A stretch of 54,011 nucleotides of DNA. Origin: a virus. Lineage: Duplodnaviria; Caudoviricetes. Each line of letters begins with the position of its first letter. Position 1 is the first letter of the stretch. The notes under the pieces were generated by a model, which was not told the origin of the DNA, did no database searches, and saw only the letters and a program-made list of their open reading frames with translations. Positions 3,124-54,011 of this stretch are shown here, one piece after another. A program made the translations under genes and the position numbers. The stretch covers positions 1-54,011 of IMG/VR virus record IMGVR_UViG_3300045966_000076, one strand, 5' to 3'.

Positions 3124-3321
3124 TTAGGACCCCTTCCGATCGATCGGTTGAATGCGAACCCGCGCGCTCGCGGGCGGTGTATGACGCGCGCAGCGCAGCC
3201 ACGCGGTTTCGGTCTGTCCCTTCGCGTCGAGGAACTCGACGACGTTGATCGCGAAGTCCCGGCACTGCCGCGGTCCCAGTGAGCACGTGACGACGTAGCG
3301 CGGACGCGGACGCGGGGTCAT
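3124..3321 (-). CDS. Small Cys/His protein
   Basis: ATGA-coupled to amidoligase; fills the gap. Confidence 0.45.
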   Translation of the reverse strand: MTPRPRPRYVVTCSLGPRQCRDFAINVVEFLDAKGQTETAWLRCARHTPPASARVRIQPIDRKGS

Positions 3322-4193
3322 TCCGCACCCCCCGTCCGGCGACGCTTGTCGTACTGCTTCGCCATCTTGCGCAGCATCTTGATCAGCTCGCGCATCCGGC
3401 TCGGGTCGATGACGCCGACCGGAGTGCGGCCGTTCGGCGGAGTCTTCGCGCGCCATACCAAGTGGTGCAGCAGCGTCGACATCGCGAACTGTCCGTCACC
3501 GGCCGTCGCGCTGCGCTTGCGCGCGATCGCGGCGATGTCGAACGGAAGCGCGCGGCTATTGTCGAGCGCGCGGCAGACCAGTCCGAGGCACAGCTGCACG
3601 TAGGCAAGAATCTTGACGATGTTGAGCGTCCCGGCGAACACGCGGAACTCGACGCGGCGACCGCGTCCCATTTCGTTCACGTGCTGCAGGTTGATCACGT
3701 GGTAGCGCGAGAACCGCGCGGGGTCGACTTGCCCGCCCTCAAACCCGCGATAGTCGAGCGCGATTGACGAGCAGTAGTGGTTCGCATCGCGCGACGTCGT
3801 GCCGGTCGACGCGAAGAGCGCGCGCTCGAAGTGCGCGACGAGACAAACCAGACGACGCAGCTGATCAGGATTGCCGGTCCAGCCGATGTTGACGTGAAAC
3901 CCCGTCGACCGATTGACGGCGGCTCCCATGACGTTCAACGTCTCGATCATCTGCTCGATGCTGCGCAGTCCGGCGAGACCAGACATCACCGGCGAGACGA
4001 CCTCGCACGCGACATGCGAGCGGCTCGGTTGAATGCTGGCGTCCGATTCCGCTGTCCAGCCCTGATGTCCGGGAATGGCGACGCCGCGATGGTAGCCGCC
4101 GATTCTCCAGCCGCGCGCGGTCAGTGTGTCGTACGGGATCGTGCACTCGATCTCGACTCCGAAGCTCAATGTGTTGACGTCTGTTTTCCTCAT
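3318..4193 (-). CDS. Putative amidoligase (COOH-NH2 ligase type 2)
   Basis: FGVEIE, DASI, EVVSP, STGFHV, RYHVIN, VEFR motifs; RBS AAGGGAG. Confidence 0.88.
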   Translation of the reverse strand: MRKTDVNTLSFGVEIECTIPYDTLTARGWRIGGYHRGVAIPGHQGWTAESDASIQPSRSHVACEVVSPVMSGLAGLRSIEQMIETLNVMGAAVNRSTGFHVNIGWTGNPDQLRRLVCLVAHFERALFASTGTTSRDANHYCSSIALDYRGFEGGQVDPARFSRYHVINLQHVNEMGRGRRVEFRVFAGTLNIVKILAYVQLCLGLVCRALDNSRALPFDIAAIARKRSATAGDGQFAMSTLLHHLVWRAKTPPNGRTPVGVIDPSRMRELIKMLRKMAKQYDKRRRTGGAE

Positions 4194-4206
4194 GTCCTTC
4201 TCCCTT

Positions 4207-4257
4207 ATGGTCAGAATCAAACAAGACCAGTCTAGGGGGTGGCATGGTCAGAATCAA
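4207..4257 (-). promoter_or_regulatory. Sigma70-type early promoter with two 14-bp direct repeats
   Basis: -35 TTGATT, 17 bp, -10 TAGACT; TTGATTCTGACCAT at 4244-4257 and 4207-4220. Confidence 0.75.
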
Positions 4258-4334
4258 GCTAAAACGGCAGAAACCGGCCGATTTTCTGCCGATTACAAGC
4301 CCGTCAGATCCGGGCGTTTGGACGCGGGAATTGC

Positions 4335-5621
4335 TTAGGGTTTCTGCGGGTTTCTACGGGTCGACCCGTCCGGGTGACCTGCAGGTCGACCCGTCCGGAC
4401 GTCGCGGCGCACAGGGGAACCAGGCGGGGGCACGGGGGTGCCTGGACGTCGACCCGTCCGGGTGCTCGACGTCCGGGTGCTCGGGTCGACCCGTCCGGGG
4501 GTGCTCGACGTCGCGCCGGTGATGAGCGCGCGCGCGCTGTCGACGTCGGCGAGCGCGGGGCCCGCGTACTCGAAGACCGCGCACGGTCGACCGCCGAGTC
4601 GTCGCGCGAGAATGCCGGATCCGCCCTTGCTGCCGATGCCGCCGGGCCGCTGCTTCAGCGCCCAGACCTTCGATCGATCGAAGGATCGAATCAGCGCCGG
4701 ATGCGCCGGATACGTGTGCACACGCTTCCCGATCGCGCGATACGCGGCGCCGAGCGTGTCGATGAGCGCGAGCGCCAGGCCGAGACCTTGAAAGTCCGGC
4801 AGCGTGACCAGTCGACTGCAGCCCCAGATGTCGTCGACCTTCGCGTGCGGCCGGTAGAGCATCCCGGCGAACGCCGCCATCTGCCCGCCGGTGAAGAGCG
4901 CGAAGCACGCGGCCGATCGATTCAGCTCGGCCGTCAGATAGTGAAACGGAGCGAAGCGACGCCACGCGGCAAACGGGACGCGTTCGACGGCGACCTCGAC
5001 GGGCGGGCGGCGTTGAAGCGACCTCCAGTCGACGGTCATCGTCGCGGGGTCGAGGATCCAGTCCGGCTGCAGCCAGTCGATGATGTCGTAGTGGCAGGAC
5101 GCGGCGACGAACTGCCGGCCGGGCGCTTTGCGGATGTACTTCTGTACCGCGTGGGCGCCGATCTGCGCGACCTGCCGATCGACGACGCTCGTGAACTCGT
5201 CGACGACGATCGGCGAGCTGGCCTCGAGGAGCCGCCGCGCGAGCTCGACGCGGAACCGCTCGCCGTTCGAGAGCACGGCGAACGGGCGCATCCAAGCCGG
5301 GATCGTATTGAAGCCGACGGCCTGGCAGACGGCCGCGATCGCGTCCATCGTCTGCACGTCGGCAAAGTCATCGACGACGGCGGGGGCGGTCCACGCGAAC
5401 TCAGCCGGGGGGCCGAACAGGTGCCGCAGAAGCGTCGTCTTGCCCGACCCGCTCGGGCCGACGATGAGCCCGATCTGCCAGCCCTTCGACTCGATGTCGA
5501 CGTCGCCGTCCCACTCGATGCGCGTCACTGCCCGCGGCGGCACGTCGAACATCGCCGACAGCTGCTTGACGCGCGAGCTGGCGCTCACGGGCGACTCGAC
5601 GCTCACCTTCACCTTCGGCAT
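4335..5621 (-). CDS. ABC-type ATPase fused to GNAT acetyltransferase
   Basis: GPSGSGKT, LSNGE, VVDEF; C-terminal SRLVTLPDFQGLGLA acetyl-CoA motif. Confidence 0.9.
   Translation of the reverse strand: MPKVKVSVESPVSASSRVKQLSAMFDVPPRAVTRIEWDGDVDIESKGWQIGLIVGPSGSGKTTLLRHLFGPPAEFAWTAPAVVDDFADVQTMDAIAAVCQAVGFNTIPAWMRPFAVLSNGERFRVELARRLLEASSPIVVDEFTSVVDRQVAQIGAHAVQKYIRKAPGRQFVAASCHYDIIDWLQPDWILDPATMTVDWRSLQRRPPVEVAVERVPFAAWRRFAPFHYLTAELNRSAACFALFTGGQMAAFAGMLYRPHAKVDDIWGCSRLVTLPDFQGLGLALALIDTLGAAYRAIGKRVHTYPAHPALIRSFDRSKVWALKQRPGGIGSKGGSGILARRLGGRPCAVFEYAGPALADVDSARALITGATSSTPGRVDPSTRTSSTRTGRRPGTPVPPPGSPVRRDVRTGRPAGHPDGSTRRNPQKP
4360..4498. repeat. Four copies of GTCGACCCGTCCGG
   Basis: Copies start at 4360, 4385, 4448, 4485. 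Confidence 0.8.
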
Positions 5622-5989
5622 GGATCCTCTCGATCGTTTACCGGATACCGGCCGTCTGGGGCGTCATATCCGGTAAGCCGCCGCTCGTCGTCGGCCTGCA
5701 TCTGGTCGAGCAGCTCGGCGGCCTGCTCGTCGTAGAACCGGGCGGCCTGCTCGTCGTAGAACCGGCGCACGGCGGCGATCCACTGTCGGTTGAGTTCGAC
5801 TATCCGGCCGGGCATGGGGTCGGTCTCAAAGCCGGACGGATCGACCGCTGTCACCGTCAGCGAGTACACGTCCGCGATGCGCAGCGGCTTGGCCGCGAGC
5901 GTCGGCGATGGCGCCGGCAGGCGGGATGCGAGGCCGACGCCGGCGGCCGCGCGCGCGAGCAGCTCGAAGAAGCGGCGACGCGTCGTCAT
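5609..5989 (-). CDS. Protein with twin-arginine-like N-terminus
   Basis: MTTRRRFFELLARAAAGVGLA; internal 24-bp duplication. Confidence 0.6.
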   Translation of the reverse strand: MTTRRRFFELLARAAAGVGLASRLPAPSPTLAAKPLRIADVYSLTVTAVDPSGFETDPMPGRIVELNRQWIAAVRRFYDEQAARFYDEQAAELLDQMQADDERRLTGYDAPDGRYPVNDREDPCRR

Positions 5990-6760: not shown

Positions 6761-7359
6761 GAGATCACCGCCTTGACGGTGAGCCCGTCGGCCTCGAACC
6801 GCTCCAGCAGCAGCTTCTGATGCGCTTCGTCGTGACAGTCGACCATGATGCGGTACTCCAGCGCGCCCATCTGCGGCGACGTGTCCGGCGAGCCGGCGGT
6901 GGCGATGAAGCGTACCAGCTCGTCTTCGGTCCACAGCGCGCCGAGGTCGACGCCGGCGGCCTTGAGACCGGCGACGATGTCGGCGTCCCAGTCGAGGCCG
7001 ACTTCGGCGACTCGATTATCGGCGAGCGCCAGGGCCTTCGCGCGCGGGTCCGTGGCGAGGTCGAGGTCCTCGCGCTGATGGACGACCAGCCGGTCGCCTC
7101 GAGTTTTCACGAGCTGCAGCTTGAGGCCGAGCGCGAGCGCGCGCTTGAGCGTCTTGTTGCCGGCGATGACGCGGCCGTAGCGATCGGCCATGATGCCGCG
7201 GCCGGCGCCGCTGGTCCGGATCGACTGGTCGAGCATCGCCTGTCCGCGCGGGGTGCCCTTGTTCGCGTTGTGCGGGTCGGGCACGAGGTCTTCGAGCGAG
7301 CGGATGATGGCCGGTCGCCGCCGGCGCGCGGGCTTCTTCTTCGGTCGACGCCGGGTCAC
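6757..7359 (-). CDS. ParB/Srx-like N-terminal domain protein (DNA-modification-associated type)
   Basis: LVPDPHNAN, VIAGNKT, LADNRVAE...W motifs. Confidence 0.8.
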   Translation of the reverse strand: MTRRRPKKKPARRRRPAIIRSLEDLVPDPHNANKGTPRGQAMLDQSIRTSGAGRGIMADRYGRVIAGNKTLKRALALGLKLQLVKTRGDRLVVHQREDLDLATDPRAKALALADNRVAEVGLDWDADIVAGLKAAGVDLGALWTEDELVRFIATAGSPDTSPQMGALEYRIMVDCHDEAHQKLLLERFEADGLTVKAVIS

Positions 7360-7658
7360 TGGCCGAAGACCTTGCTCAACGCGATGCAGGTTTGGCCGGT
7401 CGCCGTCGTGCGGCAGATGCGCGTGGTCGCCGCGACGTCGGCGCCGATCTCGATGCGGTCGGGGCAGAGTCGCGCAGCCATCGGCGGCTGCGTCGGATCG
7501 ACGGGCCGGTAGCAGGTCCACGCGTCGACGCGGACGATGCCGGCTGGCGTGACCGTCACGCCGTGCGGGCCGGTCACGACTTGCGCCGAGCTGGCGGCGG
7601 CGCCGGCGGCGAGCACGATCACGAGCAGCAGCAGTCGAGTCATGCGGGTCTCCTTCAT
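7356..7658 (-). CDS. Secreted Cys-containing protein
   Basis: Signal peptide RLLLLVIVLAAGAAASSA; four Cys. Confidence 0.65.
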   Translation of the reverse strand: MKETRMTRLLLLVIVLAAGAAASSAQVVTGPHGVTVTPAGIVRVDAWTCYRPVDPTQPPMAARLCPDRIEIGADVAATTRICRTTATGQTCIALSKVFGQ

Positions 7659-7894
7659 GGGATTCTCTGCGGGTCCCTGCCCAGCCATGCGTGCAGCGCG
7701 TCGAGCACGTCGCGCGGGTCGCCGCTGACGTCGAGGTCGGCGCGCGCCTCACCGAAGACGGTGGTCGCCTTGATGCAGAGCGGCGCGTACTCGTCGCGGC
7801 CGAACGGACGATCGCGCACGAGCACGCGCGGCGCCGCCGTCGGGTCGGGCGTGCTGCCGCCGAAGAGTTGACGCAGCAGCGTCACCATACCCAC
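7655..7894 (-). CDS. Hypothetical protein
   Basis: Tiles the operon. Confidence 0.5.
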   Translation of the reverse strand: MGMVTLLRQLFGGSTPDPTAAPRVLVRDRPFGRDEYAPLCIKATTVFGEARADLDVSGDPRDVLDALHAWLGRDPQRIP

Positions 7895-12995: not shown

Positions 12996-13300
12996 CGTCG
13001 TCGCCCGGTGTAGGGCGGCACGCCGTGACGCGGGCCGGTGGATCGGGGCACGCCATGACGCGGGCGCTTGAAGCGCGCGCGATCGGGACACGTGGCCCAG
13101 TGATTCGGCGCGAGATCGACGGTCAGCATCTCGCGCTTCGTGAGGATCTCTTCCTCGGTGACGATCGCCTCGGGCATCCGGTCGAAGCACATTTGTCGAC
13201 CGGATGCCACGATCTGCGCCCACACGATCCGGCGGCGACACGTCGCCCCCCGGCAGAAGTCCCACCGGATCGTGTCTTTCCAGATCTTCGTCGTCGCCAT
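12992..13300 (-). CDS. Zn-binding phage protein
   Basis: CRGATC...IVW...HWATCP pattern. Confidence 0.75.
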   Translation of the reverse strand: MATTKIWKDTIRWDFCRGATCRRRIVWAQIVASGRQMCFDRMPEAIVTEEEILTKREMLTVDLAPNHWATCPDRARFKRPRHGVPRSTGPRHGVPPYTGRRR

Positions 13301-13304
13301 CGCG

Positions 13305-13736
13305 TCACCGCGCCAGGATGATCGTGCGCTTGCCCTCGAAGGCCGCCATGACCAGCTCGCGCAGCGTGAGGACCTTCTCGGCCTGCGCGCGCGCGATGAG
13401 ATCCGGATCGCGGGCGCGCAGCTCGTCGAGCAGTTCGTTGACCTGCTCGCGCAGCACGTCGAGGTCGTCGGTCGCGTGCGTATGGATGACCTCGATGAGC
13501 GATCGGCCGGCCATGACGAGCAGCTGCTGCTCATCGGGCGGCCGCTCGGCGAACGCGTCGACCCACAGGTTCGCCGCCGGGTGCACGTGCGCGAGCGCGC
13601 GCAGCACGACGGCCGAGAGCAGCCGGCCGAGTTCGCAGGTCGAGCAGACGACGCGCGTCTCGTCGGCCCAGCTGCAGCCGGTCGCACACGGCGCGTCGTC
13701 TCGGCACTCGCAGTACTGACAGACGCCGGGGGTCAT
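13305..13736 (-). CDS. Cys-rich zinc-finger protein
   Basis: CQYCEC...C...CSW...CSTC. Confidence 0.75.
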   Translation of the reverse strand: MTPGVCQYCECRDDAPCATGCSWADETRVVCSTCELGRLLSAVVLRALAHVHPAANLWVDAFAERPPDEQQLLVMAGRSLIEVIHTHATDDLDVLREQVNELLDELRARDPDLIARAQAEKVLTLRELVMAAFEGKRTIILAR

Positions 13737-15262
13737 CGGCCCCCCGCTTTCGCCTGCGGCTTCGCTGTGACTCCGGACGTCTGGACTGGCTCGCAGCTCT
13801 TCACGTCGACCTTCAGCGCCTTCGCCCAGCTGACCATCTTCGCCTCGTTGCCCGACCAGTCATACCGGAACGTCTCGCCGATCGCGCGGTCGAGCAGCGC
13901 GCGCGACAGTCCGGCCGGCTTCGTCGATCCCGGCAGTCCGTACGCGGCGAGCAGCTTGGCGAAGACCGGCTTCGGCAGCGTGCCGTTCAGCTTCGCGACG
14001 GCCGCGCGCGTCGCCTTTTCCAGCGCCGGCTTGAACGTCTTCCAGCGCAGCTCGCGGGCCTCGCGCTCGGCCTTGTCGCGCGCGTCGCGGGCGGCGAGCG
14101 CGGCTTCCTGGCGCTTGCGATTGCCGGCCGCCGTGGTCTTGCCCGCGGCCTGCGCCTTCTCGCGCTTCTTCTTCTCGTTGACCTCGCGCTTCCAGTGCAC
14201 GACGCACTTGTCGCGCGCGATGCAGACGTCGAAGGCCTGGCCGCGGTCGGCGCCGGCGGCGACGACGCCCAGCGTCGCGTGCTCGCACTTCGGATTCCCA
14301 CGCGTGCCGTCGGCGCGCTTCCATGACTTCGGCCCGTAGGTGCGCTCGTCCTCGTCGCGCGCTTCCGGCTGCGTGTAGTGCTCGTGCGTGATCGCGATGA
14401 GCGCGCGGCGCAGGTTCCGCTCGGCCATCGCCGTCGATGATGCGGTGGCCCGCGCCTGCTGCTCGACGGCGGCGACGCGCTCGGCGACGTCGCCGAAGAC
14501 GAGCGGGGCGGCGTGCGCCGCGTGCTCGACGTCGAACCGCACGTGGTCATCGATCCAGTGCTGCAGTTCGCGGACGGTGACCGCCTTCAGGCCGTAGCTC
14601 GGATCCTTCTTGCGCGCGGCCTCGTCGTACGGCAGACCTTCCTCGCGCGTCCAGAGCCCGCCGCGCTTGTCGCCGTACTCGCCCGTGCCGACGTGAATGA
14701 CGCGGATCTGGTCCTCGGCCTTGAGGCGCGCGATGAGGATCGCGTGCCCGACGGAGATCCGATCGGCGGCGAGGAACTTCTTCGCGGGCGGGATGAGATC
14801 GTTCAGCTTCATCCGGTCCCACACCCACTGCGGCGACATGCCGAGGCGGGCCGCGATCGACTCGGCGCTGTGCTTCGTCGGGTTCGAGTCGATGAGCGCG
14901 CGGTAGCCCTTCGCCTGTTCGAGCGGCGTGAGATCGCGCCGCTGGATGTTCTCGATGAGCTGAATCTCGAGGACGGCCTCGTCGTCGAGCGCGCGGATGA
15001 TCGCCGGGATGTCGGTGACGCCGTTCGCGGCCAGCTTCGAGGCGCGCACGCGTCGCTCGCCGGCGACGATCTCGTAGCCGGACTTGCCGCGCACCTGGCG
15101 CACGAGGATCGGCTGCACGACGCCCTTCTGCTTGATGGATGCCGCGAGCTCGGCGAGGGCCGTCTCGTCGAAGTTCTCGCGCGGCTGCGTCTTCGAGGCG
15201 AAGAGCTGGTCGAGCGGGATGCGCTCGAAGCGGTCGGGTGTTGCCGTCTGGGGTGTAGTCAT
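13733..15262 (-). CDS. parB: ParB/Spo0J family protein
   Basis: QPRENFD, SIKQKGVVQPILVR, IVAGERRVRA, ENIQRRDL, HTH. Confidence 0.9.
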   Translation of the reverse strand: MTTPQTATPDRFERIPLDQLFASKTQPRENFDETALAELAASIKQKGVVQPILVRQVRGKSGYEIVAGERRVRASKLAANGVTDIPAIIRALDDEAVLEIQLIENIQRRDLTPLEQAKGYRALIDSNPTKHSAESIAARLGMSPQWVWDRMKLNDLIPPAKKFLAADRISVGHAILIARLKAEDQIRVIHVGTGEYGDKRGGLWTREEGLPYDEAARKKDPSYGLKAVTVRELQHWIDDHVRFDVEHAAHAAPLVFGDVAERVAAVEQQARATASSTAMAERNLRRALIAITHEHYTQPEARDEDERTYGPKSWKRADGTRGNPKCEHATLGVVAAGADRGQAFDVCIARDKCVVHWKREVNEKKKREKAQAAGKTTAAGNRKRQEAALAARDARDKAEREARELRWKTFKPALEKATRAAVAKLNGTLPKPVFAKLLAAYGLPGSTKPAGLSRALLDRAIGETFRYDWSGNEAKMVSWAKALKVDVKSCEPVQTSGVTAKPQAKAGGR

Positions 15263-15588
15263 CGGTCGTCGCTCCTTGTGGATTCGAGGGCTTCAGCGAT
15301 CGCGTCGACAGCGGCCTCGGGCGTCTGTCGGCGCAGCGCGGTCAAGTCGAGGCCGATCGCGGCCACCGCGCTAAAACTTTCCGCGTCGCGTTCGGCGAAC
15401 GGATCGCCGGCCGCGCGCTGTTTGTAAATCTCGGCCCAGTCGACCGGGCCCTGTGCGTGCGCGACGCAGCGCAGCATGATGCGGCGCACGCCGGTGAGCG
15501 TGATCACCTGCACCGGCTGGCCGGGCGGGATTTCGCACCAGTCGAACCCGCACCGCTCGTGTCGTTCGGCGAGTCGCCAGCTTCTCAT
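15259..15588 (-). CDS. Hypothetical protein
   Basis: ATGA-coupled; C-x4-C...CxxH. Confidence 0.65.
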   Translation of the reverse strand: MRSWRLAERHERCGFDWCEIPPGQPVQVITLTGVRRIMLRCVAHAQGPVDWAEIYKQRAAGDPFAERDAESFSAVAAIGLDLTALRRQTPEAAVDAIAEALESTRSDDR

Positions 15589-16193
15589 CGGAAGACCTCA
15601 TCGACGTGCGGGGCGATGCAGCCCGGCTCGCCACAGATCGGACACGGCCGCTGTCGACGCTCGCGATCGCAGCGGTCCTTCAGCCAGCGCGCGATCGTCG
15701 TGCCGTCGGTGAGGTCGGCGATCGGGATCGCCCGGCCGGGGATCAGCAGCGACGTCCGCCGCTCGCGCGGCTCGTAGCAGTTCGCGATCGTCGGGTACGT
15801 CTCGATGCGGCGCCGACTCATGCCGCCGACGAGCTGCACCAACCGCGCGCCGACGGTGCACCAGATGAGCACGACGAGCTGCGCGGTGCGCTTCACCAGC
15901 ATCGAGTTCTTCACCGGCAGGAAGTACGGCCGGGCCTTGCACGCCTTCGTGTCGATGGTCACGCCGGCGACGCGGAAGTCGAAGCCCTCGTCGCCCGTGT
16001 CGCCGGTGAACTCCGGCACCGGCAGGCCGAAGAACATCGCGAAGGACCACTCGGCCGCCCAGCCGATGACGTTCTCGGCTTCCTCGACGGTGGTCATGCG
16101 CGGCGAGGTCCGCGCGGCACAGTGCGCTTGCCGGCGGCGTCCCATCTCGACGGCCAGGTCCCAGTCGGGCGCGGGCATCTCGACGTAGCTCAT
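15585..16193 (-). CDS. Putative PD-(D/E)xK nuclease-like protein
   Basis: G..AE...GDEGFDF...IDTK; C-terminal CPICG. Confidence 0.6.
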   Translation of the reverse strand: MSYVEMPAPDWDLAVEMGRRRQAHCAARTSPRMTTVEEAENVIGWAAEWSFAMFFGLPVPEFTGDTGDEGFDFRVAGVTIDTKACKARPYFLPVKNSMLVKRTAQLVVLIWCTVGARLVQLVGGMSRRRIETYPTIANCYEPRERRTSLLIPGRAIPIADLTDGTTIARWLKDRCDRERRQRPCPICGEPGCIAPHVDEVFR

Positions 16194-16993
16194 CCCGTCC
16201 TCCGATCGCGATCGAGTCGCAGCCGGCGCTGCCGCTCACGCGCGCCGCGGCGGGCGATCACCGCGTCGACGACGGCCGTCAGATCGCGCGGGTGCGGCGA
16301 GGCGCTTGTCAGCTCCTGCACGACGAAGCGGCCCAGCTCGGCGACCAGCTCGCCGGGCTTCGGGCCGAGGGCGTCGACGTAGGGCGGGCCCGACTCGATG
16401 AGCGCGTGCACCTTCGCGTGCAGGTGCCGCCGCAGTTCCCAGACTTCGAGATCCATGCGCGCCAGTCCCGCGCGTCGGCGCGGCTCTTCCGGATCTGGAT
16501 CTTCTACGGGGACGGGGACGGGATCGCGCGCGCGCGCGAGCGCCGCGGATTCCGCTCGGAGTCCGCCCGGATTCCGCTCGGAGTCCGCCCGGATTCCGCT
16601 CGGCGTCCGCCCGGACGCTGCGCCGGACTTCCGCGCCCGCGCGGCCCGCTTGCGGGCGGCATCCTGTGCCCGTTTTTCCTTCACGTCGGCGGCGTCCGGG
16701 TTGTGGTGTTCCCAGTCGTGAAACTGATAGCCCGGCTCGTCGTTGACCTGCGTCTTCTTGAACAGCCCGGCGCGCGCGCACGCATTCATCACGGTCTCGG
16801 CCCGCGCGTCGGTGCGGAAGGTCTGCACCGCGATCGCCGGGACGAAGCCGTCGGTCAGATACTTCGAGGCGTACAGGCCCGCTTCGAGCCAGACGGCGGC
16901 GACCCGCCCGATGTGCTTGGGCCCGCCGAGCATCCGCGCGGCGGCTAGGACCTTCGGATGGTCGAGGAACTGGTCATCAACCTTGAACCACAT
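16190..16993 (-). CDS. Phage replication initiator (HTH type)
   Basis: MWFKVDD..DHPK...TDGF...YQFHDW..HNP; contains internal tandem repeats. Confidence 0.8.
   Translation of the reverse strand: MWFKVDDQFLDHPKVLAAARMLGGPKHIGRVAAVWLEAGLYASKYLTDGFVPAIAVQTFRTDARAETVMNACARAGLFKKTQVNDEPGYQFHDWEHHNPDAADVKEKRAQDAARKRAARARKSGAASGRTPSGIRADSERNPGGLRAESAALARARDPVPVPVEDPDPEEPRRRAGLARMDLEVWELRRHLHAKVHALIESGPPYVDALGPKPGELVAELGRFVVQELTSASPHPRDLTAVVDAVIARRGARERQRRLRLDRDRRTG
16547..16615. repeat. Three 22-bp tandem repeats, probable origin iterons
   Basis: GGATTCCGCTCGG(A/C)GTCCGCCC x3 inside the initiator gene. Confidence 0.8.
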
Positions 16994-17004
16994 GGGGCGG
17001 TCCT

Positions 17005-17793
17005 TCAGCGGCGAGCCGCGACGTCGGGCGTCTCGAACGCGCGCAGGCCGGGGATCCGATTGAGGCCCTCGCGCATCGCGCGGGCCATTTCGTTGATCGT
17101 CATCTGGCGCGCGTCGAGCAGGTGCCGTAGTTCCGGCTGCGCGAGGCAGTGCTTGATGAGCTGCAGATCGCTGGTCGCGACCTCGCGAAGTCGCAGCGCG
17201 TGCGCGTGTTCGGGGTGCGCGGCGCAGTGCGCGACGAACGCACGCAGGTCGACGCAGCTGCCGGTCCACGTCATGCGATGCACGATGCCGGCGACCCGCG
17301 GCGGCCGCGGCGGGACGACGGGCACGGACGGGGCCGGGGCCTGGATCTGTTCCTCGACGATCTGCTCGGCCTGCTGCACGAGACCGACGTCGCCCCAGCC
17401 CTTGCCTTCCTTCTCCAGCGCGGCCGCGCGTTCGAGCGCCTCGGCGTCGGCGCGCAGTCGTTCTTCTTCCTCCCGTCGACGCTGCTGCTCGCGCGCCCGT
17501 CGCGCCTTGAGTTCCTTGTAGTCGACGAGATGGTCCTTGATGATGCGTTCGGCCTGGATGAGCGGCGTGCGCACGTCGGCCTTCTTCGCCTTCGCGGTGG
17601 CGACGGCCCGCTCGGCGTCCTTGATGATCGGATCGAAGGCCTGGTCGGCTTCGTCGAGCAGCGCCTTGATGCCCTTGAGCAGCTCGGCGGCGGCGACATA
17701 CGCGTCGTCGGTGTCGACGACGGTCGCGCGCGCGCGGTCGGGCCACGTGAGTGCCTTCTGCAGGACGGCCTGCCGGGGGTCAGAGACAGCCAT
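17005..17793 (-). CDS. Coiled-coil protein of recombination module
   Basis: Long helical region then W...VD...IPGL. Confidence 0.7.
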   Translation of the reverse strand: MAVSDPRQAVLQKALTWPDRARATVVDTDDAYVAAAELLKGIKALLDEADQAFDPIIKDAERAVATAKAKKADVRTPLIQAERIIKDHLVDYKELKARRAREQQRRREEEERLRADAEALERAAALEKEGKGWGDVGLVQQAEQIVEEQIQAPAPSVPVVPPRPPRVAGIVHRMTWTGSCVDLRAFVAHCAAHPEHAHALRLREVATSDLQLIKHCLAQPELRHLLDARQMTINEMARAMREGLNRIPGLRAFETPDVAARR

Positions 17794-18424
17794 GATGTGC
17801 GATTCTCCAGCGCACGATGCGAAGTGCGGACAAGAAGATCTGCTCGTCGCCCGGCTGCTCGTACGGGACAAGCCGGTAGGTCCCGTCGCCGGGCAGGATG
17901 AGCGCCTTGCGATCGAAGAGCACCGGCACGGCGTAGAGCCGCCGCGCCATCCACGCGTAGGCCGCGAGCTGGATCGCGGTAGCCGGCGACTCGCCCGGCT
18001 TGATGTCGTAGAGTCGACGTCGACGCGGGTGATCGTTGGGATGCCGCACGATGAGGTCGAGCGTGCCGGCGACGTGATGTGTGCGGTCGGACACGATCTG
18101 CTCGCAGAACTCGACCGCGCCGCCGACTTCCTGGCGGAACTTCCGGTAGCCGGTGAGATAGCCGACGAGCCGCTCGTCGAGTCGGTCCTCGTCGAGCGCC
18201 CCTTCGTTCTCCAGCGCGACCATCTGATGAACCTTCTGGCCGCGGTCGCGGTGCCACTCCGTGAACCACGGCGCGCTGTAGTCGGTCAGCTTCACGGCGC
18301 CGAGGATGCGCGTCACGCCCTGCAGTTCGATGTCGCCGGCGAAGTACTGATGCGACGCCGAGCGCCAGACGTCGCCGAGCCCGATCGCCTGCTTCAAATC
18401 AGCGAGCGCGTCGTGTCCAGTCAT
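17780..18424 (-). CDS. PD-(D/E)xK exonuclease
   Basis: GVTRIL, RGQKVH, AGTLD, DIK, QLAAY. Confidence 0.85.
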   Translation of the reverse strand: MTGHDALADLKQAIGLGDVWRSASHQYFAGDIELQGVTRILGAVKLTDYSAPWFTEWHRDRGQKVHQMVALENEGALDEDRLDERLVGYLTGYRKFRQEVGGAVEFCEQIVSDRTHHVAGTLDLIVRHPNDHPRRRRLYDIKPGESPATAIQLAAYAWMARRLYAVPVLFDRKALILPGDGTYRLVPYEQPGDEQIFLSALRIVRWRIAHHGCL

Positions 18425-19308
18425 CGCGCGCCCTCCGTGTGCTCGACGCGGCGGCAGGCCTCGTCGTAGACGTCGCGGGTCAAGTCGCGCGTGTGCTCGA
18501 TGCCGTACGTCTTCTTCAGCCAGTCGCGCAGCTGCTCCTTCGACCAGCCGGCGCCCATCGCGATCGCGAAGATGCGCTTGTCCTGCTGCTCGGAGATCTT
18601 CGCCGGGGCCGCCCCGGTCTTCCGCTCGGGCGTCGCGATCGGCGTCGCGACGGGCGCGGTCGTCGAGCTGCCGACCGGCTTCGGCTCGCGCGGCGGATCG
18701 TTCCTGGCCTGATCCATTTCCTCGAACGTGTGCAGGTCGCCGAGCTGCTGCGGGAAGGCCTTGCGCAGCGCGAGCGCCTCGGCGCACTTGGCGAGCTGGC
18801 CGTGCGGCATCTTGAGCCACATGAAGTTGTTCTTCTCGTCGGGCAAGTACTCCGCCCAGCGCGCGGTCGCCGTGAACGGGCACTTCCAGCCCTTCACTTC
18901 GCGATAGACCGTGACGGTCGCCGCGAAGTCCGGCGTGTTCTCGCCGGTGAAGACCGCGTCGTCGGTGCCCATGTGTTCACGCGACTCGGCCGCACGCGAG
19001 CGGAAGAAGTCGATCGACGTGACGGGCGTGTACTTGCCGCCGCGCTTCGTGAAGTGGATCAGCTTGTCGAGCGGGTGCACCCCGCGTCGCTTGCAGTCGT
19101 AGAAGAAGAGTCGCAGCTCGACGTCGGTCGCGTCGGGCGCGATCGTCGCCTTGATGAGGTCGACCTGCTCGGCCGTGATGACGACCTCGGGCAACTGGTC
19201 GGGCATCGGGGCAATCGCGGTCGGCTGCGCGTTCTGGCGCAGCGTGGCGGCGACGTCTTCGTCGCTCATGTGGCCGCCGCCGGGCTTCGTGATGGTGCGT
19301 TCGGTCAT
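18421..19308 (-). CDS. bet: Bet/RecT-family ssDNA annealing protein
   Basis: ATDVELRLF..C...HPL..IHF, SIDFFR, W.KMP..QLAKCAEALALRKAFP. Confidence 0.9.
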   Translation of the reverse strand: MTERTITKPGGGHMSDEDVAATLRQNAQPTAIAPMPDQLPEVVITAEQVDLIKATIAPDATDVELRLFFYDCKRRGVHPLDKLIHFTKRGGKYTPVTSIDFFRSRAAESREHMGTDDAVFTGENTPDFAATVTVYREVKGWKCPFTATARWAEYLPDEKNNFMWLKMPHGQLAKCAEALALRKAFPQQLGDLHTFEEMDQARNDPPREPKPVGSSTTAPVATPIATPERKTGAAPAKISEQQDKRIFAIAMGAGWSKEQLRDWLKKTYGIEHTRDLTRDVYDEACRRVEHTEGAR

Positions 19309-19529
19309 CGGGATCCTTTCAGCGCGACCGTCGCCGGGCCGCTCGCGCGTTCGAGCAGTGTCATCACGAGCGGGACACCGCTGAAGGGCACGGCCGGCTG
19401 CAAGAGCCAGACGTTGCCGCGTGCGTCGACGTAGTCCCAGCCGCGCCGGTCGCCGCGGCGGGTGATGGTGTTCGCTTCTCGATGGGTGACCTCGGCCGCA
19501 GGTGGCCGATCGGCGATGTGCAGGGGCAT
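19305..19529 (-). CDS. Hypothetical protein
   Basis: RBS AAGGAGG. Confidence 0.55.
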   Translation of the reverse strand: MPLHIADRPPAAEVTHREANTITRRGDRRGWDYVDARGNVWLLQPAVPFSGVPLVMTLLERASGPATVALKGSR

Positions 19530-19544
19530 GACGGACCTCCTTGG

Positions 19545-19608
19545 AAAAAACGAAGGCGGGGGACGCGGCCGCGTAGAAGACAATCGCGGGCGCCGCGCGG
19601 CCCCCGCC
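19545..19608 (-). terminator. Intrinsic terminator-like hairpin
   Basis: GGCGGGGG...CCCCCGCC followed by TTCGTTTTTT. Confidence 0.6.
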
Positions 19609-19612
19609 GCTT

Positions 19613-19762
19613 TCAGCTGAGTAACGTGACGAGCAGGATGACGACGAGCGGGCCGAGCAGCAGCACGGCCCATGTGATCTTCGTCGCGCGCGACGCGACC
19701 GGGATCGGCCGCGACAGATAGTCTTCGAGTTCGGGCGTCCAGAGCAGTCGGGGAGTTTTCAT
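19613..19762 (-). CDS. Small membrane protein
   Basis: ATGA-coupled; C-terminal TM. Confidence 0.55.
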   Translation of the reverse strand: MKTPRLLWTPELEDYLSRPIPVASRATKITWAVLLLGPLVVILLVTLLS

Positions 19763-19884
19763 CGCGTCACCGCCTTGTCGAGCCAGCGCAGGAAGCGACG
19801 ACCGGCGCGCGTGCCCTCCAGCACGAACCCGCCGAGCGTCCACAGCGTGAAGACGATCAGGAAGATGCCGACCGATTCGATCAT
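19759..19884 (-). CDS. Small membrane protein
   Basis: ATGA-coupled; TM helix. Confidence 0.55.
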   Translation of the reverse strand: MIESVGIFLIVFTLWTLGGFVLEGTRAGRRFLRWLDKAVTR

Positions 19885-20108
19885 CGCAGGCCTCCGATCG
19901 CGGCGAGGTCCTCGCGGAACTCGGCCGCGGCGATTCCGGTGAGCTGCCAAATCTTCGACGCGAGCGTGACCGACGGCTGGCGGGTGCCCGAGAGAATCAT
20001 CGAGAGATGAGCCGGGGAGATGTCGAGCGCGGCAGCGAGCCAGTTCTGATCCTGCTTCGCGACGTCGTCGAGCCACGTGCGCAGACGGACGTGTCCGTTC
20101 GTTTTCAC
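19881..20108 (-). CDS. XRE-family HTH regulator (Cro-like)
   Basis: QNWLAAALDISPAHLSMILSGTRQPS. Confidence 0.9.
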   Translation of the reverse strand: MKTNGHVRLRTWLDDVAKQDQNWLAAALDISPAHLSMILSGTRQPSVTLASKIWQLTGIAAAEFREDLAAIGGLR

Positions 20109-20117
20109 AGTGAGCGA

Positions 20118-20147
20118 ACTTTACAAAAACGAAAGACGCCCCGGCAA
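20118..20147 (-). promoter_or_regulatory. Promoter for (near-)leaderless XRE transcript
   Basis: TTGCCG-18 bp-TAAAGT, 9 nt before GTG; no RBS. Confidence 0.6.
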
Positions 20148-20195
20148 GCCCTTTCTGCAGGCCCCACGGCAAAAGTTCCGCCGGGCCGTGCCGTG

Positions 20196-20209
20196 GTTCC
20201 ACGTGGAAC
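20196..20209. promoter_or_regulatory. parS: parS-type palindrome
   Basis: Perfect 14-bp palindrome GTTCCACGTGGAAC in intergenic DNA, matching bacterial chromosomal parS core. Confidence 0.75.
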
Positions 20210-20355
20210 GGCGCCGCGACGGGCGCCGCGACGTCCGGCGGGGGTCCGTCGGGCGGGTGACCTACACGGGCCCGATGGTCGGGACACACGCGCGCGATTG
20301 CAGGCAAACCCGCGAGAATCCCGCAGGAACGACGATCGCGCAGGGGGTCCGTGGG

Positions 20356-21162
20356 TCAGCTCGTCGAGGGCCCCGGCCGGCGCCTGGCGGGGACGCCGGC
20401 GTCCCGCGGGGGGTCGCCTCGAGGCGCGGCCGCGCCTGGCGCCTCGAGCTGGGCCTGGTCGGGCCGAGCTGGGCCTGGTCGGGTCTGGGTCCACGGCGGC
20501 CGGAGCAGGACCCGCTCGTACCACGCGTCTTCGTCCTTGACGAACGTGCGAAAGGCCGCGAGCGCGCGCTCGAACCCGCGCACGGTCCCGCCCCGATCGG
20601 GGTGCGCGGCCAGCATCGCCGCGCGCAGCGCGGTCCAGCGCGCGAGCGCGAACTGGTCGTGCGCCTCGATCGAGACGCACGCCTCGCCGAGCTGACGCCA
20701 GCGGGGTCGTGGCAGCGGGACCGGCCGCGTCGGACGTGTCGGCACGAGCGCGACGCGGACGGCCTCAGCCAGCCGGCGCTGTGTGCGGTACTCCCGCTGC
20801 CGCACGCGCGAGCACGCGCGACAGACGCGCTGCCGGCCGGTCTGGATCGTGTTCGTCTCGTCGAATGGATGGCCCCGCGTGCAGGTCTCCTTCGTGCGGC
20901 GGCGGTCGGCACTCGCGCGGCCGGCGGCGGCGATCGACGCGCGCATCTTGTCCGTCATCCCGCTCGGCCCGTAGCGGGCGCGTCGCGTCTCGGCCGCCTG
21001 TCGACTGCCCTCCGATCGCGTCGCGTGTCGGAGTCGCGACCAGATCTGATAGCAGCGCAGACAGTGCAGGACCCACTTGCCGATCCGGCGGTGAAAGTAC
21101 CGGCGGCCGTGCTCGACGTAGAGATGCCCGCGTCGGCATCGCTTCGCGCGCTGCCAGCTCAC
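20356..21162 (-). CDS. Double zinc-finger protein with J-domain-like HPD C-terminus
   Basis: CRRGH..CLRC and CTRGH..CRAC; AAHPDRGG. Confidence 0.65.
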   Translation of the reverse strand: MSWQRAKRCRRGHLYVEHGRRYFHRRIGKWVLHCLRCYQIWSRLRHATRSEGSRQAAETRRARYGPSGMTDKMRASIAAAGRASADRRRTKETCTRGHPFDETNTIQTGRQRVCRACSRVRQREYRTQRRLAEAVRVALVPTRPTRPVPLPRPRWRQLGEACVSIEAHDQFALARWTALRAAMLAAHPDRGGTVRGFERALAAFRTFVKDEDAWYERVLLRPPWTQTRPGPARPDQAQLEAPGAAAPRGDPPRDAGVPARRRPGPSTS

Positions 21163-21383
21163 CGGCCTCGGCGGGCCTTCCGGCCGACGTCGATGTACGC
21201 GCCGGTCGCTTCGCGCATCACGGCTTCGTCGAGCGCGTAGTAGGTGACCTTCTGGTGCGCGTCGGCGCCGGGCGCGACGAACCAGTGCCGCTCGCGCCGC
21301 CATCCGCGACGCACGAGCCAGCGCGCCAGCGACTCGTAGGTCTGCTGGAGCGTCATCATCGGCAGGTGGTTCGTCTCGCTCAT
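21159..21383 (-). CDS. Hypothetical protein
   Basis: Coupled at both ends. Confidence 0.55.
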   Translation of the reverse strand: MSETNHLPMMTLQQTYESLARWLVRRGWRRERHWFVAPGADAHQKVTYYALDEAVMREATGAYIDVGRKARRGR

Positions 21384-23017
21384 CGCTTGCGCTTGCGCTT
21401 CGTCTCGCGCTGCACGAGCTCGGCCGCGGCGACCTCGCCGCCTTTGGTCTCGATGTCGACGACAGCCGAGCGCGTCGTCGTCGCGCGCTTCGGTTTCATC
21501 GTGAAGGTGACGACGCCGATCGCCCCCGCGAGCGGCCCGCTGCCCTTCGCCGTGCCCGTCCACTCGGCGGGCGCGAAGACCTCGACCTGCTCCTTCAGCT
21601 TCGCGACGGCGCCTTCGAGCAGCTCGACCTGGCCGCCGACCATCTGCACGTCGGCGAGGATCCTGCCGCTCGCCTGCGTCTGCACTTCCTTCAGCGCGCG
21701 CACTTCGTTCGCCACGTTCTGCAGTTCGTTCGTCACCCAGTCGAGTCGCTGCAGGATCGGGTACGGGTCGAGCGGCGGCGGCGGGGGCGGCGGCGGGGGC
21801 GGCGGCGGGCCCTCGGGCGCGATCGGCGGAACCCAGAGATTCGTGTCGGTCTCGCGTCCTTCCTGCGGTCGCGGGCCCCAGCTGACGCGCGCGGGCCCGC
21901 TCTTGCCCGCCGCATCGGGGCCGCCGGCGTCGCCGAAGCAATCGACGAAGACGCCGCCGGTGTGGACGATCGCATCGTGCGAGACGCGGTGCCCGTCGTA
22001 CCGCGTGCCGCCGGCCTGCCCCGGATCCTTGTGCAGCAGCCGCCAGCCTTTATCTGCTGATTCCCACAGCACGCGATTGAGGATCGCGACGAGCTGGTCG
22101 CTGGTCGGGTTGTCGACGTGCGGCTCGCCGTGTTGCGGCAGGTTCCGGCGCAGCGCGTCGATGGCGGGTTCGAGCGATTCAGGCATAACAGGCATCTCCG
22201 GATCTGGATCGGGTGGCGGTGGCGGTGGCGGTGGCGGCGGCGGCGGGTCGTCTTCCAGCGGCAGCGTCGCGAGGTCGGCGACGGTCAGCCAGAGCAGGTG
22301 CGCGGAGTCGCGGCGGGCGGCTTGCTTCCAGTACGCGATCGCGAGGTCGTCGCCGACACGGTTGAAGCGCACGAACCACGTGAACTGGCCGGGCTCGATG
22401 ATGTATCGCTTGCCGCGGTGCAGGATGAGCACGCCGCCCTCGTGGCCCTGGCCGACGACGATGTCGCCGATGGTCGTGTACTCGTGAATCAGCCGGCCGA
22501 AGTCGTCGCGCGTGTACGTGTAGGCGTGAATCTGCGGCACGCCGTCGGGGCCGATGTGACGGATGCCGCCGGCCGCGACGTCCTTGCCCTCGATGAGCGG
22601 CGCCGCCAGGCCGTCGCCGATGACGGCGTCCCAGCCCCGGATCCAGTAGACGCGGCCATCGGGCCCGAAGGCCGACGCGAAGGCGCCGGCGTGCGTCGAC
22701 GCCATCAGGTGCCAGTCGCGGTCGCCGCGCGGCCGGCGCGTCCGGTCGTAGACGATCACCTGATCGCCGCCCTGTTCGTGGCCGCAGATGCGATGCGATC
22801 CAGGCACCGGATCGAGCCGGGCGGTGATGATGCCGCCGCGCCGGATCTTCGTCACGCCGTCGCGGTCGAGTACCTCAAAGTCGAGGGGCGCGACGTCGCC
22901 GGCCCGGTTCTCGAAGACGCCGGTCTGGATCGGATCCCACGGGCCGGTAGTGCAGATCCACCGGCCATCGGGCATCGCCTCGGCGTAGGTCCCGCCCTCG
23001 ATGTCATGCGTTCTCAT
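21380..23017 (-). CDS. Multidomain protein with polyproline linkers
   Basis: Beta-rich N-domain, two poly-Pro runs, coiled coil. Confidence 0.8.
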   Translation of the reverse strand: MRTHDIEGGTYAEAMPDGRWICTTGPWDPIQTGVFENRAGDVAPLDFEVLDRDGVTKIRRGGIITARLDPVPGSHRICGHEQGGDQVIVYDRTRRPRGDRDWHLMASTHAGAFASAFGPDGRVYWIRGWDAVIGDGLAAPLIEGKDVAAGGIRHIGPDGVPQIHAYTYTRDDFGRLIHEYTTIGDIVVGQGHEGGVLILHRGKRYIIEPGQFTWFVRFNRVGDDLAIAYWKQAARRDSAHLLWLTVADLATLPLEDDPPPPPPPPPPPPDPDPEMPVMPESLEPAIDALRRNLPQHGEPHVDNPTSDQLVAILNRVLWESADKGWRLLHKDPGQAGGTRYDGHRVSHDAIVHTGGVFVDCFGDAGGPDAAGKSGPARVSWGPRPQEGRETDTNLWVPPIAPEGPPPPPPPPPPPPLDPYPILQRLDWVTNELQNVANEVRALKEVQTQASGRILADVQMVGGQVELLEGAVAKLKEQVEVFAPAEWTGTAKGSGPLAGAIGVVTFTMKPKRATTTRSAVVDIETKGGEVAAAELVQRETKRKRKR

Positions 23018-41626: not shown

Positions 41627-43122
41627 TCCTCCGGCACGCCGACGATGGTGTCGGCGAACTTCATCACGGCGACGGGCGGCGCGGGCATCTCGACGATGGT
41701 GTCGGCGAACTTCATCACGAGGACGACGACCGGCCCCGCCGCCGGCGCGGCACCGCCGCTCACGGTGCCCGCAAACAGCTGCGTCGAGGCCACGTGCGCG
41801 CCGACGATCGCGGTGCCCGTCGAGACCGTGCCGGCGAACAGCTGCGTCGCGCTGACGTGCGCGCCTTCAATGCTGACGCTGACGCTGCCGGCGAACAGCT
41901 GCGTCGCGCTGACGTGCGCCCCAGTAATTGCCAGGCCGAGACTCCCGACGAAGACCTGTGTACTGGCGACGTGCGCGCCCTCGACGGTGACGCTGACGGA
42001 TCCCGCGAAGACCTGCGTCGAGGCGACGTGCGCACCGGCGATCGATCCGGCTTCCGTGACCGTACCCGCGAAGACCTGCGTCGACGAGACATGCGCGCCG
42101 GTCACGTCAATACTGAGACTCCCCGCGAAGATCTGCGTCGACGAGACGTGCGCGCCGGCGATCGCCAGGCCGACAGAGCCGGCGAAGACCAGCGTCGAGG
42201 CCACGTGCGCGCCCTCGACGCTGACGCTCACGGCCCCGGCGAAGATCTGCGTCGACGAGACGTGCGCGCCGCTCACGTCGAGGCCGACCGTCCCGCTGAA
42301 GAGCTGGGTGCTGGCGACGTGCGCGCCCTCGACGGACGGGCTGACTTCTCCGGCGAAGAGCTGCGTCGACGCGACGTGCGCGCCGCTCACGTTCTGGCCG
42401 GAGTCTTCGCTGACTTCCCCGGCGAAGATCTGCGTCGCGCTGACGTGCGCGCCACTCACATCGACGCTGACGCTGCCCGTGAAGATCTGCGTCGACGACA
42501 CATGCGCGCCGCCGACGTCGGCCGTGAAGGTCGACGTCGTGATCCGCGTGCCGGTCGAGCCGTCGACGCCGGTGCGCCAGTTGATGTCGGCCGTTGTCAT
42601 CCCGCCCGCGCCCGTGCGTTCCCACGCGATCTGGATGAAGAGATACTGGTTGGTGATCGTGAACGCGCCGGGGTTGACGGTCAGCGTCGAGTCGAAGTCG
42701 GCCGCCGTCGAGACGTTCGAGACGATCGAGGCGAGCTGCTGGCCGCTCGTGATCTCCGTCGCGTTCGACCCGTCCGCGTCCGCCTTGATGATGCGGAACC
42801 GGACGCGCCCGTCCTGCGCGCCGCCGTTCGTGACAGCCCGCACGACGAAGTGAAAGACCCAGTTGCCAGAGGCGAAACTGCCGGTGAAGGGGAACTGGGA
42901 TCGGAACGCGTCCTTGAGCGTCGTGTCGAGCGAGCCGTCGGGCGGCGTCGTGTTGACGAACGTCGTTGCCGCGCGTTCGACGCCGACCGCGTACTCGCTG
43001 TGCAGGGTCGCGCCGGTCGAGACGACCCAGCCGTCGTTAATCGTGGCGGCGGCTTGATTCGTTTCGGTGATGCGCCGCCAGCCGTCGTCCGTCGCATTAG
43101 CGAGAAAGAGCGTGACCGCCAT
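41623..43122 (-). CDS. Fibre-like protein with 13 GAHV repeats
   Basis: Globular N-domain plus ~19-aa repeats GAHV(S/A)(S/A)T(Q/L)(I/L/V)F.G. Confidence 0.85.
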   Translation of the reverse strand: MAVTLFLANATDDGWRRITETNQAAATINDGWVVSTGATLHSEYAVGVERAATTFVNTTPPDGSLDTTLKDAFRSQFPFTGSFASGNWVFHFVVRAVTNGGAQDGRVRFRIIKADADGSNATEITSGQQLASIVSNVSTAADFDSTLTVNPGAFTITNQYLFIQIAWERTGAGGMTTADINWRTGVDGSTGTRITTSTFTADVGGAHVSSTQIFTGSVSVDVSGAHVSATQIFAGEVSEDSGQNVSGAHVASTQLFAGEVSPSVEGAHVASTQLFSGTVGLDVSGAHVSSTQIFAGAVSVSVEGAHVASTLVFAGSVGLAIAGAHVSSTQIFAGSLSIDVTGAHVSSTQVFAGTVTEAGSIAGAHVASTQVFAGSVSVTVEGAHVASTQVFVGSLGLAITGAHVSATQLFAGSVSVSIEGAHVSATQLFAGTVSTGTAIVGAHVASTQLFAGTVSGGAAPAAGPVVVLVMKFADTIVEMPAPPVAVMKFADTIVGVPED

Positions 43123-47273: not shown

Positions 47274-47491
47274 AGATTCCACCATCGGGTCAGCAGTTTG
47301 ATCTCGTACGCGTCGCGCAGACCGCGCAGCCGACGCAGCTCGATCGCGGCCGCGACCGCGTCGAGGTCGAGGAAGGATGGGTTGTAGTTGACGTCGTCGA
47401 TCGCGTCGTCGATGACGAGCGCCTCTTGTAGAAACGGATCATCGTCCGGGTAGTGGCGCCGGAGTTCTTCCAGTTCGTCGTCAAGGTTCAT
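47270..47491 (-). CDS. Acidic hypothetical protein
   Basis: ATGA-coupled to TerL and peptidase. Confidence 0.6.
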   Translation of the reverse strand: MNLDDELEELRRHYPDDDPFLQEALVIDDAIDDVNYNPSFLDLDAVAAAIELRRLRGLRDAYEIKLLTRWWNL

Positions 47492-53776: not shown

Positions 53777-54011
53777 CTCTTCAGTCGCGCGCGAGCGACT
53801 CGCCGACGTCCTGCAGACGCTTGGCGAACTCGCGCGCCTCCTTCTTCGTGTCGAACGTCACGACCGGCGGCGCCGGCGAGCCGCCCCTGCTCTTCAGTGA
53901 GCAGCGCGCCGGATTCGGTCGACTCGTCGTACTCTTCAATCTCGATCCACACGTTGTAGGTCTTGCTCATCGGATGCCCTCGACAATCTCGGCGACGCGT
54001 TCGGCGAACAG
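53777..54011. repeat. Terminal overlap (right copy)
   Basis: Matches 1-234 with 1-nt insertion. Confidence 0.95.

Follow-up and report, generated by a model that had tools for sequence, protein, structure and literature searches.

A chromosomal-type parS core upstream of the putative early promoter of a high-GC soil phage with an orphan ParB, and its possible reading by host ParB

The chromosomal centromere parS is a palindrome of 16 bp, TGTTNCACGTGNAACA, that is bound by ParB/Spo0J. According to the sections of the Pseudomonas aeruginosa study drawn on here (PMC5961200), both arms of parS1-4 in this organism share GTTCCAC as their fully conserved part, this heptamer is bound even when it stands alone, and ParB at the palindromic sites parS3 and parS4 represses the adjacent promoters. 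Phage phi29, a small protein-primed phage of Bacillus, has five parS sites for the Spo0J of its host and uses them to enter the prespore, as stated in the relevant passage of PMC2731898 (its reference 21). KorB (RK2) and BisD (ICEclc) are presented, in the portions of the two reports used here, as ParB-family CTP clamps that regulate promoters from their loading site (PMC11790492, PMC12409273). Orphan ParB-CTPases on mobile elements form a described class in the part of PMC12704722 that concerns us, which also defines the ParA-binding motif (L/F/I)G(K/R)G(L/F/I). The P1, N15 and mycobacteriophage parABS systems belong to plasmid prophages (PMC7157519, the section on these phages).

The locus that we compare with these systems lies in an IMG/VR virus record of 54,011 bases and about 69% GC, hereafter the window (the whole stretch of DNA analysed), which is rated 100% complete and labelled 'linear'. 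This label is misleading: bases 1-234 equal bases 53777-54011 with 234/235 identities and one homopolymer (C-run) indel, so that its ends join to give a closed unit of ~53.78 kb. In 4/4 soil runs, contigs extend beyond position 1 by 147 to 11,535 bases, a pattern that a circle, a concatemer or a terminal repeat would produce; a metagenome scan for the junction at position 1 with the first 40 bases of the record gave no match. No integrated form of the phage was seen, a form whose discovery, by the preliminary description, would have told against its reading. The minus strand carries nearly all genes with coding-type GC3 in the whole record, and the features that enter the argument are the following, in order of transcription:

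Upstream of TerS: small genes, the first to be transcribed
49413-50237: TerS, after the small genes
47488-49560: TerL, lambda gpA-like, at most 41% identical to named phages
After TerL: structural and tail genes
Between the tail genes and the 315-aa HNH-like ORF: a lysis-like gene, then a 545-aa gene without assigned function
20356-21303, minus strand: ORF of 315 aa with a weak HNH-endonuclease match (phrog_826, 2.2e-8; GC3), last gene before the gap
20109-20355, minus strand: intergenic gap of 247 bp, with the HNH-like ORF on its late side and the XRE gene on its early side
20210-20233: tandem 12-mer in two copies (our own reading of the sequence)
20196-20209, no strand: perfect palindrome of 14 bp, GTTCCACGTGGAAC, made of two GTTCCAC heptamers arranged as in parS, with G on either side
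20175-20181: GTTCCGC near-half-site, 21 bp from the palindrome (likewise our own reading)
20118-20147, minus strand: putative promoter, TTGCCG-18 nt-TAAAGT, read by hand and ending 9 nt before the XRE GTG
19881-20108, minus strand: XRE/HTH_3 regulator of 75 aa (HTH_3, 2.9e-6), first gene of the early block
18421-19308: RecT, after XRE
Between RecT and the replication initiator: exonuclease-like ORF
16190-17746, minus strand: replication initiator (phrog_2447, 5.5e-27)
16541-16615: tandem repeat of 22 bp, 3.4 copies (96% matches), inside the initiator gene
13733-15262, minus strand: orphan long-form ParB of 509 aa (ParB_N 7.8e-31, HTH_ParB 5.5e-11)
Beside ParB: methyltransferase-like ORF
Last in transcription order: accessory genes, among them those for a P-loop + GNAT protein and an amidoligase
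1-234, no strand: left copy of the end overlap

The observation from which this work started, a perfect palindrome of parS type at 20196-20209, is confirmed. All 14 core positions of chromosomal parS (14/14) are the same in the phage, in which the core GTTNCACGTGNAAC stands as a perfect inverted repeat; at the outer positions, where the 16-bp palindrome has T and A, the phage has G on both sides. The phage locus differs from chromosomal parS also in being present as a single copy, in not lying near oriC and in having no cognate parS-reading ParB encoded nearby. Within the record, GTTCCACGTGGAAC is the sole match at up to two mismatches, 1 against 0.24 expected, and 21 of 100 shuffles reach at least one match at this tolerance. 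The exact sequence appears in 0/100 shuffles of the record; by our own base-composition calculation, about 1.5e-4 copies are expected in the record and about ten times fewer in its non-coding part. Palindromy in itself is ordinary in this genome, which has 19 perfect palindromes of at least 14 bp against 14.9 expected. The record also contains 15 GTTYCAC half-sites (8.0 expected), together with 8 degenerate copies of GTTCCACGTGGAAC at up to three mismatches (2.24 expected). These degenerate copies are not counted as support, because they resemble strings of GAC/GTC/GAA codons and the shuffles ignore codon structure. At least four of the seven inexact copies are inside genes, namely the P-loop/GNAT gene, ParB, XRE and a gene of 1363 aa, and 2/7 are in stretches without a called gene; the XRE gap holds the exact site only.

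Reading the gap along the coding strand, the stop of the HNH-like ORF is followed by about 130 bp, the two copies of the tandem 12-mer, the palindrome, the near-half-site and the TTGCCG-18 nt-TAAAGT element. With its start 48 bp ahead of the -35 of the inferred XRE promoter, the palindrome is where it had been placed earlier, in the main gap about 50 bp upstream of that promoter; its centre precedes the inferred start by ~90 bp. The promoter itself is a reading by hand that falls below the threshold of the scan, since a search of the gap for promoters and terminators returned none at the tool thresholds (for promoters, 9 of 12 matches). The GC content is 0.54 over 20081-20160, by the XRE promoter-like element, and the palindrome lies in an intergenic gap beside one of the AT-richest promoter-like stretches. 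RNA structure was considered for the gap and rejected (z = -0.31).

The preliminary description had credited the ParB at 13733-15262 with an intact GERR motif and an HTH, and both are present. Its N-domain has an intact CTPase fold with the motifs QPR, GERR (as GERRVRA) and ENIQR, and is followed by an HTH of ParB type, whose recognition surface is divergent, and then by a Cys/His beta module, a coiled coil and helices. QPR, GERR and ENxQR are the motifs of the ParB-CTPase family, and by these motifs and its ParB_N fold the protein is a member of it. Residues 12-190 match chromosomal ParBs at E values of 1e-33 to 1e-27, versus 2.6e-11 for KorB. The structural model, which is confident (pLDDT 86.9), matches structures of ParB and Noc in the N-domain and the HTH only. 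With regard to the C-terminal dimerisation domain of chromosomal ParB, Pfam gives no match past residue 188, and with the whole model as query fold matches are restricted to residues ~7-246, none of them in the C-terminal half.

The DNA-reading surface of this protein bears directly on the link between phage ParB and palindrome that had been implied earlier, and that link fares badly. In the part of the study of Caulobacter ParB that deals with specificity (PMC7383237, Jalal et al.), the parS contacts are Q162, G170, K171, S172, R173, N178, G201 and R204, and R173 is invariant among the parS-specific variants. Alignment to the Caulobacter DNA-binding domain places A133, G141, M142, S143, P144, D149, G172 and I175 of the phage protein at these positions, so that 3/8 contacts are kept and five are replaced (Q162 by A, K171 by M, R173 by P, N178 by D, R204 by I). 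Across 30 members of the family, no variation is seen at G141, S143, D149 and I175 and almost none at A133, and P144 and G172 agree with the consensus, from which it follows that the family shares one DNA-reading surface. With only three of the eight contacts retained and R173 changed to proline, the phage ParB is, judging from the aligned residues, unlikely to be the reader of GTTCCACGTGGAAC. A regular-expression search also found no ParA-binding motif of the form (L/F/I)G(K/R)G(L/F/I) in it. One stretch of the genome, 4151-4520, is a candidate site for the phage ParB: it is the AT-richest spot (GC 0.46), lies upstream of the amidoligase gene and contains GGTCAGAATCAA twice and then four GTCGACCCGTCCGG within 140 bp, part of GTCGAC-centred palindromes, the repeat array at 4356-4500 resembling an operator, iteron or centromere array.

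Persistence as a plasmid had been offered as one way of life for this phage. The genes on which the proposal was built are as described: the initiator is of iteron type, with repeats at 16541-16615 that are iterons and probably mark the origin, and six-frame searches of the record, in which positive-control genomes gave matches in most cases, found nothing at E<=1 for PF00589, PF00239, PF00665, PF16684, PF13614 or PF01656, that is, no tyrosine or serine recombinase, rve transposase, protelomerase or AAA_31/CbiA-type ParA. The phage therefore lacks, in these searches, both the integrase, recombinase or transposase of a temperate integrating phage and the Walker-type ParA ATPase (PF13614 / PF01656) of a ParABS system; a single P-loop protein was found, an ABC-like ATPase in fusion with GNAT. 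Every Logan contig breaks at 16541-16615. The absence of integrase, the iteron initiator, the ParB-family gene and the circular assembly are features in common with the P1, N15 and mycobacteriophage parABS plasmid prophages as they appear in the cited section of PMC7157519. Unlike those, the window phage has no ParA, no ParA-binding motif and no repeated centromere beside parB, and its ParB family occurs also in integrated proviruses. Among 29 whole records with long-form ParB, 5/29 are proviruses, one of them with a tyrosine integrase at the contig end, and 4/29 have direct terminal repeats. Since the family is also found in proviruses, long-form ParB is no marker of a plasmid lifestyle, and the proposal of plasmid persistence is not sustained.

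Conservation of the site in related phages, which the preliminary description had suggested as a check and whose lack it took as telling against its reading, is not observed in the relatives at hand, all of which are partial, distant and mosaic. Megablast of 13000-23000 against named phages gave no close relatives. Several candidates were set aside: the loci L009-L012, found through RecT, share RecT only; those found through the initiator match over a confined region of ~125 residues; and G001 shares the ParB module only (ParB 56% identical). In the partial relative L273, the tail and lysis genes and the 545-aa gene are syntenic, and its XRE homolog is 44% identical. GTTCCACGTGGAAC is absent from G001, and L273 has no non-coding site within three mismatches, so the site is not conserved in the same place in these two distant, mosaic genomes. 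Two routes to a host were likewise discarded, as the scan of genome contigs for the ParB family led to three MAG contigs from three phyla and the Atlas neighbours, among which the commonest phylum was Acidobacteriota, reached a score of 0.87, below the bar of 0.9. A search of the record for tRNA genes gave none.

The family of the phage ParB comprises 2037 proteins at E<=1e-10, and the best 120 of these 2037 are all 486-590 aa long. Within 80 ParB-family loci (1.30 Mb), exact GTTNCACGTGNAAC occurs once, and 25/29 of the other whole records with long-form ParB have no parS-core site within one mismatch. Exact GTTCCACGTGAAAC, again flanked by G, is present at a gene junction in 1/29 of these records, L039 (also G125), against an expectation for the 29 records of ~0.01-0.04 by our own analytic estimate and 0/29 for the reversed control; in G108, a copy with one mismatch lies where two genes converge. 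This second G-flanked core partly restores the case for the site of the window. In L039 it lies between a gene stop and the HNH gene 7263-7813, overlapping the GTG start of the latter; a G-flanked core thus adjoins an HNH gene in both phages, being in the window ~150 bp past the stop of 20356-21303. The broader pattern GTTCC-Nx-GGAAC was tried as a motif of the family and rejected, because its enrichment is weak and inflated by one coding tandem repeat: with spacers of N0-6 it occurs 11 times in the long-form ParB loci against 3.8 expected, and 3/11 are that one repeat in L017. There, CGGTTCCGGGAA stands in tandem with a 12-bp period at 5690-5760, 4.3 kb upstream of the long-form ParB, and is probably a (GSGN)n coding repeat. 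As to bacterial chromosomes, in two high-GC MAGs that contain relatives of the ParB family 4/5 chromosomal parS sites have exactly the core of the window, as the earlier claim of identity with the chromosomal core would have it. The fifth has GAAAC in one arm, giving GTTCCACGTG(G/A)AAC as the MAG core overall, and the 3'-side base is A at 5/5 sites; in a third MAG no parS site was found.

A census of viral contigs in IMG/VR puts the flanks of the site into perspective. The exact 14-mer is present in at least 120 viral stretches versus 58 for the reversed-letter control, and among the 121 occurrences listed 55 have the T..A flanks, 48 are canonical on one side only and 18 on neither side, with G..G in 4 of the 18. 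The full 16-mer TGTTCCACGTGGAACA is likewise found in at least 120 viral stretches, and the equivalent flanks in 3/58 control matches, which makes the perfect 16-bp parS at least 40 times commoner than the control in viral contigs. From the 18 copies without a canonical flank, the background share is estimated at ~32/121 of the 14-mer copies listed. The class without T or A, to which the G..G site of the window belongs, is thus about as large as background predicts (18/121 listed), and 16/18 of its copies fall inside ORFs of 100 codons or more. As to the 16-mer, only 2/54 records with the 16-mer flanks encode ParB_N, none are proviruses (7 of the 27 control records searched are) and 9 are at least 90% complete, and 72 parS loci compared for kinship fall into 64 sequence components, mostly unrelated. 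Taken together, the excess of the 16-mer and the two ParB_N genes in 54 records indicate that host-type parS on ParB-less phages is real and frequent. The intergenic preference of the 16-mer sites is not significant by a crude measure (13/44 vs 8/45, p=0.22). The 16-mer loci L097-L214 and L280-L305 range in GC from 23 to 70%, and some of their sites come directly after terminator-like hairpins.

In evolutionary and functional terms, these data leave several explanations to be weighed for the palindrome. The one that ranks first, and that we adopt tentatively, as possible if somewhat short of probable, is that it is a functional chromosomal-type parS core read by the ParB of the host and not by that of the phage. 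Binding by host ParB is plausible given the binding of GTTCCAC in P. aeruginosa, the identical cores in MAGs and the precedent of phi29. We infer that host ParB dimers, given phage DNA inside the cell, would nucleate on the two GTTCCAC arms, form closed CTP clamps and then slide or spread over the neighbouring kilobases, with two proposed consequences: (i) the phage DNA may become coupled to the ParABS/SMC positioning machinery of the host, in the manner of phi29 and Spo0J; and (ii) ParB occupancy may lower or time early transcription, given the position of the site at the late/early boundary, 48 bp in front of the XRE promoter. Both consequences had been anticipated in the preliminary description. 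Borrowing of host ParABS has its precedent in phi29, which the window phage resembles, as far as the cited passage of PMC2731898 goes, in having host-type parS, no ParA, no integrase and host ParB as putative binder; yet phi29 has several host-type sites, five by that account, against one at up to two mismatches here, and is small and protein-primed, whereas the window phage has 53.8 kb, 69% GC, a lambda-type terminase and a ParB-like protein of its own. Control of the promoter by ParB loading has its precedent in the repression at parS sites described in the pertinent section of PMC5961200. Against the reading by host ParB we count the G..G flanks, to be set beside the 3' A of all five MAG sites, the single copy, the absence from L273 and G001, the non-significant intergenic preference of the 16-mer sites, the choice of the finding out of a very large scan and the commonness of palindromes, and we regard the support for this single copy being functional as no more than moderate. 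An unrelated operator and chance are jointly about as likely as the host-ParB reading. Chance alone, whereby a 14-mer without function arose by drift in non-coding DNA and was noticed as a match to a famous motif, we consider rather doubtful. It is favoured by the flanks, which place the site in the class whose size fits background and whose members mostly lie inside ORFs, by the single copy missing from L273 and G001, by the ordinary number of palindromes, and by the very many windows covered by the scan behind the finding; with a site picked from so large a scan, chance copies of a 14-mer are expected somewhere. The small expectation for this record, smaller still in its non-coding part, the empty shuffles and the second G-flanked exact core in another phage of the same ParB family speak the other way.

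It is less likely, though still to be taken into account, that the palindrome is an operator for the phage XRE, another HTH protein of the phage or a host factor, its identity with parS being coincidental. The position ahead of the gene that opens the early block and codes for an HTH_3 protein would suit an operator, as would the near-half-site 21 bp away, the 12-mer AAGTTCCGCCGG that the gap has in common with the region upstream of the XRE homolog of L273, and the surplus of GTTCC-N0-6-GGAAC in long-form ParB loci. But the single palindrome is centred well beyond the core promoter, the shared 12-mer is oppositely oriented relative to XRE in the window and L273, the latter has no equivalent palindrome, three of the 11 spaced matches are the coding repeat of L017, and exact equality of a random operator with the parS core would be rare. 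We find it improbable that the 509-aa ParB of the phage itself loads at the site and slides as a CTP clamp, for control of the early operon or organisation of the DNA. Its intact CTPase motifs, the closeness of its N-terminal part to chromosomal ParBs rather than KorB, the same G-flanked core in L039 and the described class of orphan ParB-CTPases (in the part of PMC12704722 already cited) agree with such a role, and so does the likeness with KorB and BisD, an orphan ParB-fold CTPase on a mobile element with a palindrome upstream of a promoter. Yet, compared with what the used portions of the KorB and BisD reports describe, the HTH of the phage protein is no match to a parS reader, its C-terminal half differs and its link with the site is hypothetical. 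Five of the eight contacts are changed, the changed A133, P144, D149 and I175 being invariant, near-invariant or consensus across the family, and 25/29 of the other whole records lack a site within one mismatch despite the shared surface. An equally long shot is a more general proposal, in which parS carriage is a widespread, hardly described strategy of phages, and here, in a two-part version of it, clamps of host ParB-CTP recruited by the parS core to the late/early boundary would be joined, capped or displaced by the phage ParB, with its CTPase domain of chromosomal type, re-specified HTH and new tail of Cys/His module and coiled coil, which would thereby take over positioning or time early transcription.

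Returning to the reading by host ParB, the use of host ParB by a phage is of a kind precedented by phi29, and the site of the window as an instance of it is unproven; the earlier interpretation is, overall, partly supported. If the site is functional, the trick of phi29 with the host centromere protein would extend to an unrelated high-GC soil phage, and ParB beside an early promoter would be a host factor in the timing of phage genes. If it is due to chance, a 14-bp parS core that lacks both the outer T and the outer A does not on its own point to a centromere. The strong over-representation of the 16-bp chromosomal parS on ParB-less viral contigs merits follow-up independently of the site in the window.

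The analysis has also brought to light a large family of phage ParBs of ~500 aa, in which the CTPase motifs are intact, the DNA-reading surface is changed and the C-terminal half is uncharacterised. In this latter region (residues ~195-509, encoded by 13733-14680), C326, C347, C353 and H356 are invariant in the beta module across the family, and the module is followed, within the C-terminal 300 residues, by a coiled coil of ~50 residues and then a helical bundle. Elsewhere in the genome, a gene of 499 aa in the structural region contains a 57-bp repeat in 11.7 copies (41834-42517), which has a period of 19 residues. At 3318-5621, the Amidoligase_2 gene adjoins the fusion of a P-loop (ABC-like Walker A) with GNAT, and ParB and the methyltransferase-like ORF lie ~7-8 kb from this pair on the same strand, a set that recalls the phage DNA-modification clusters with ParB-like activators (PMC13229309).
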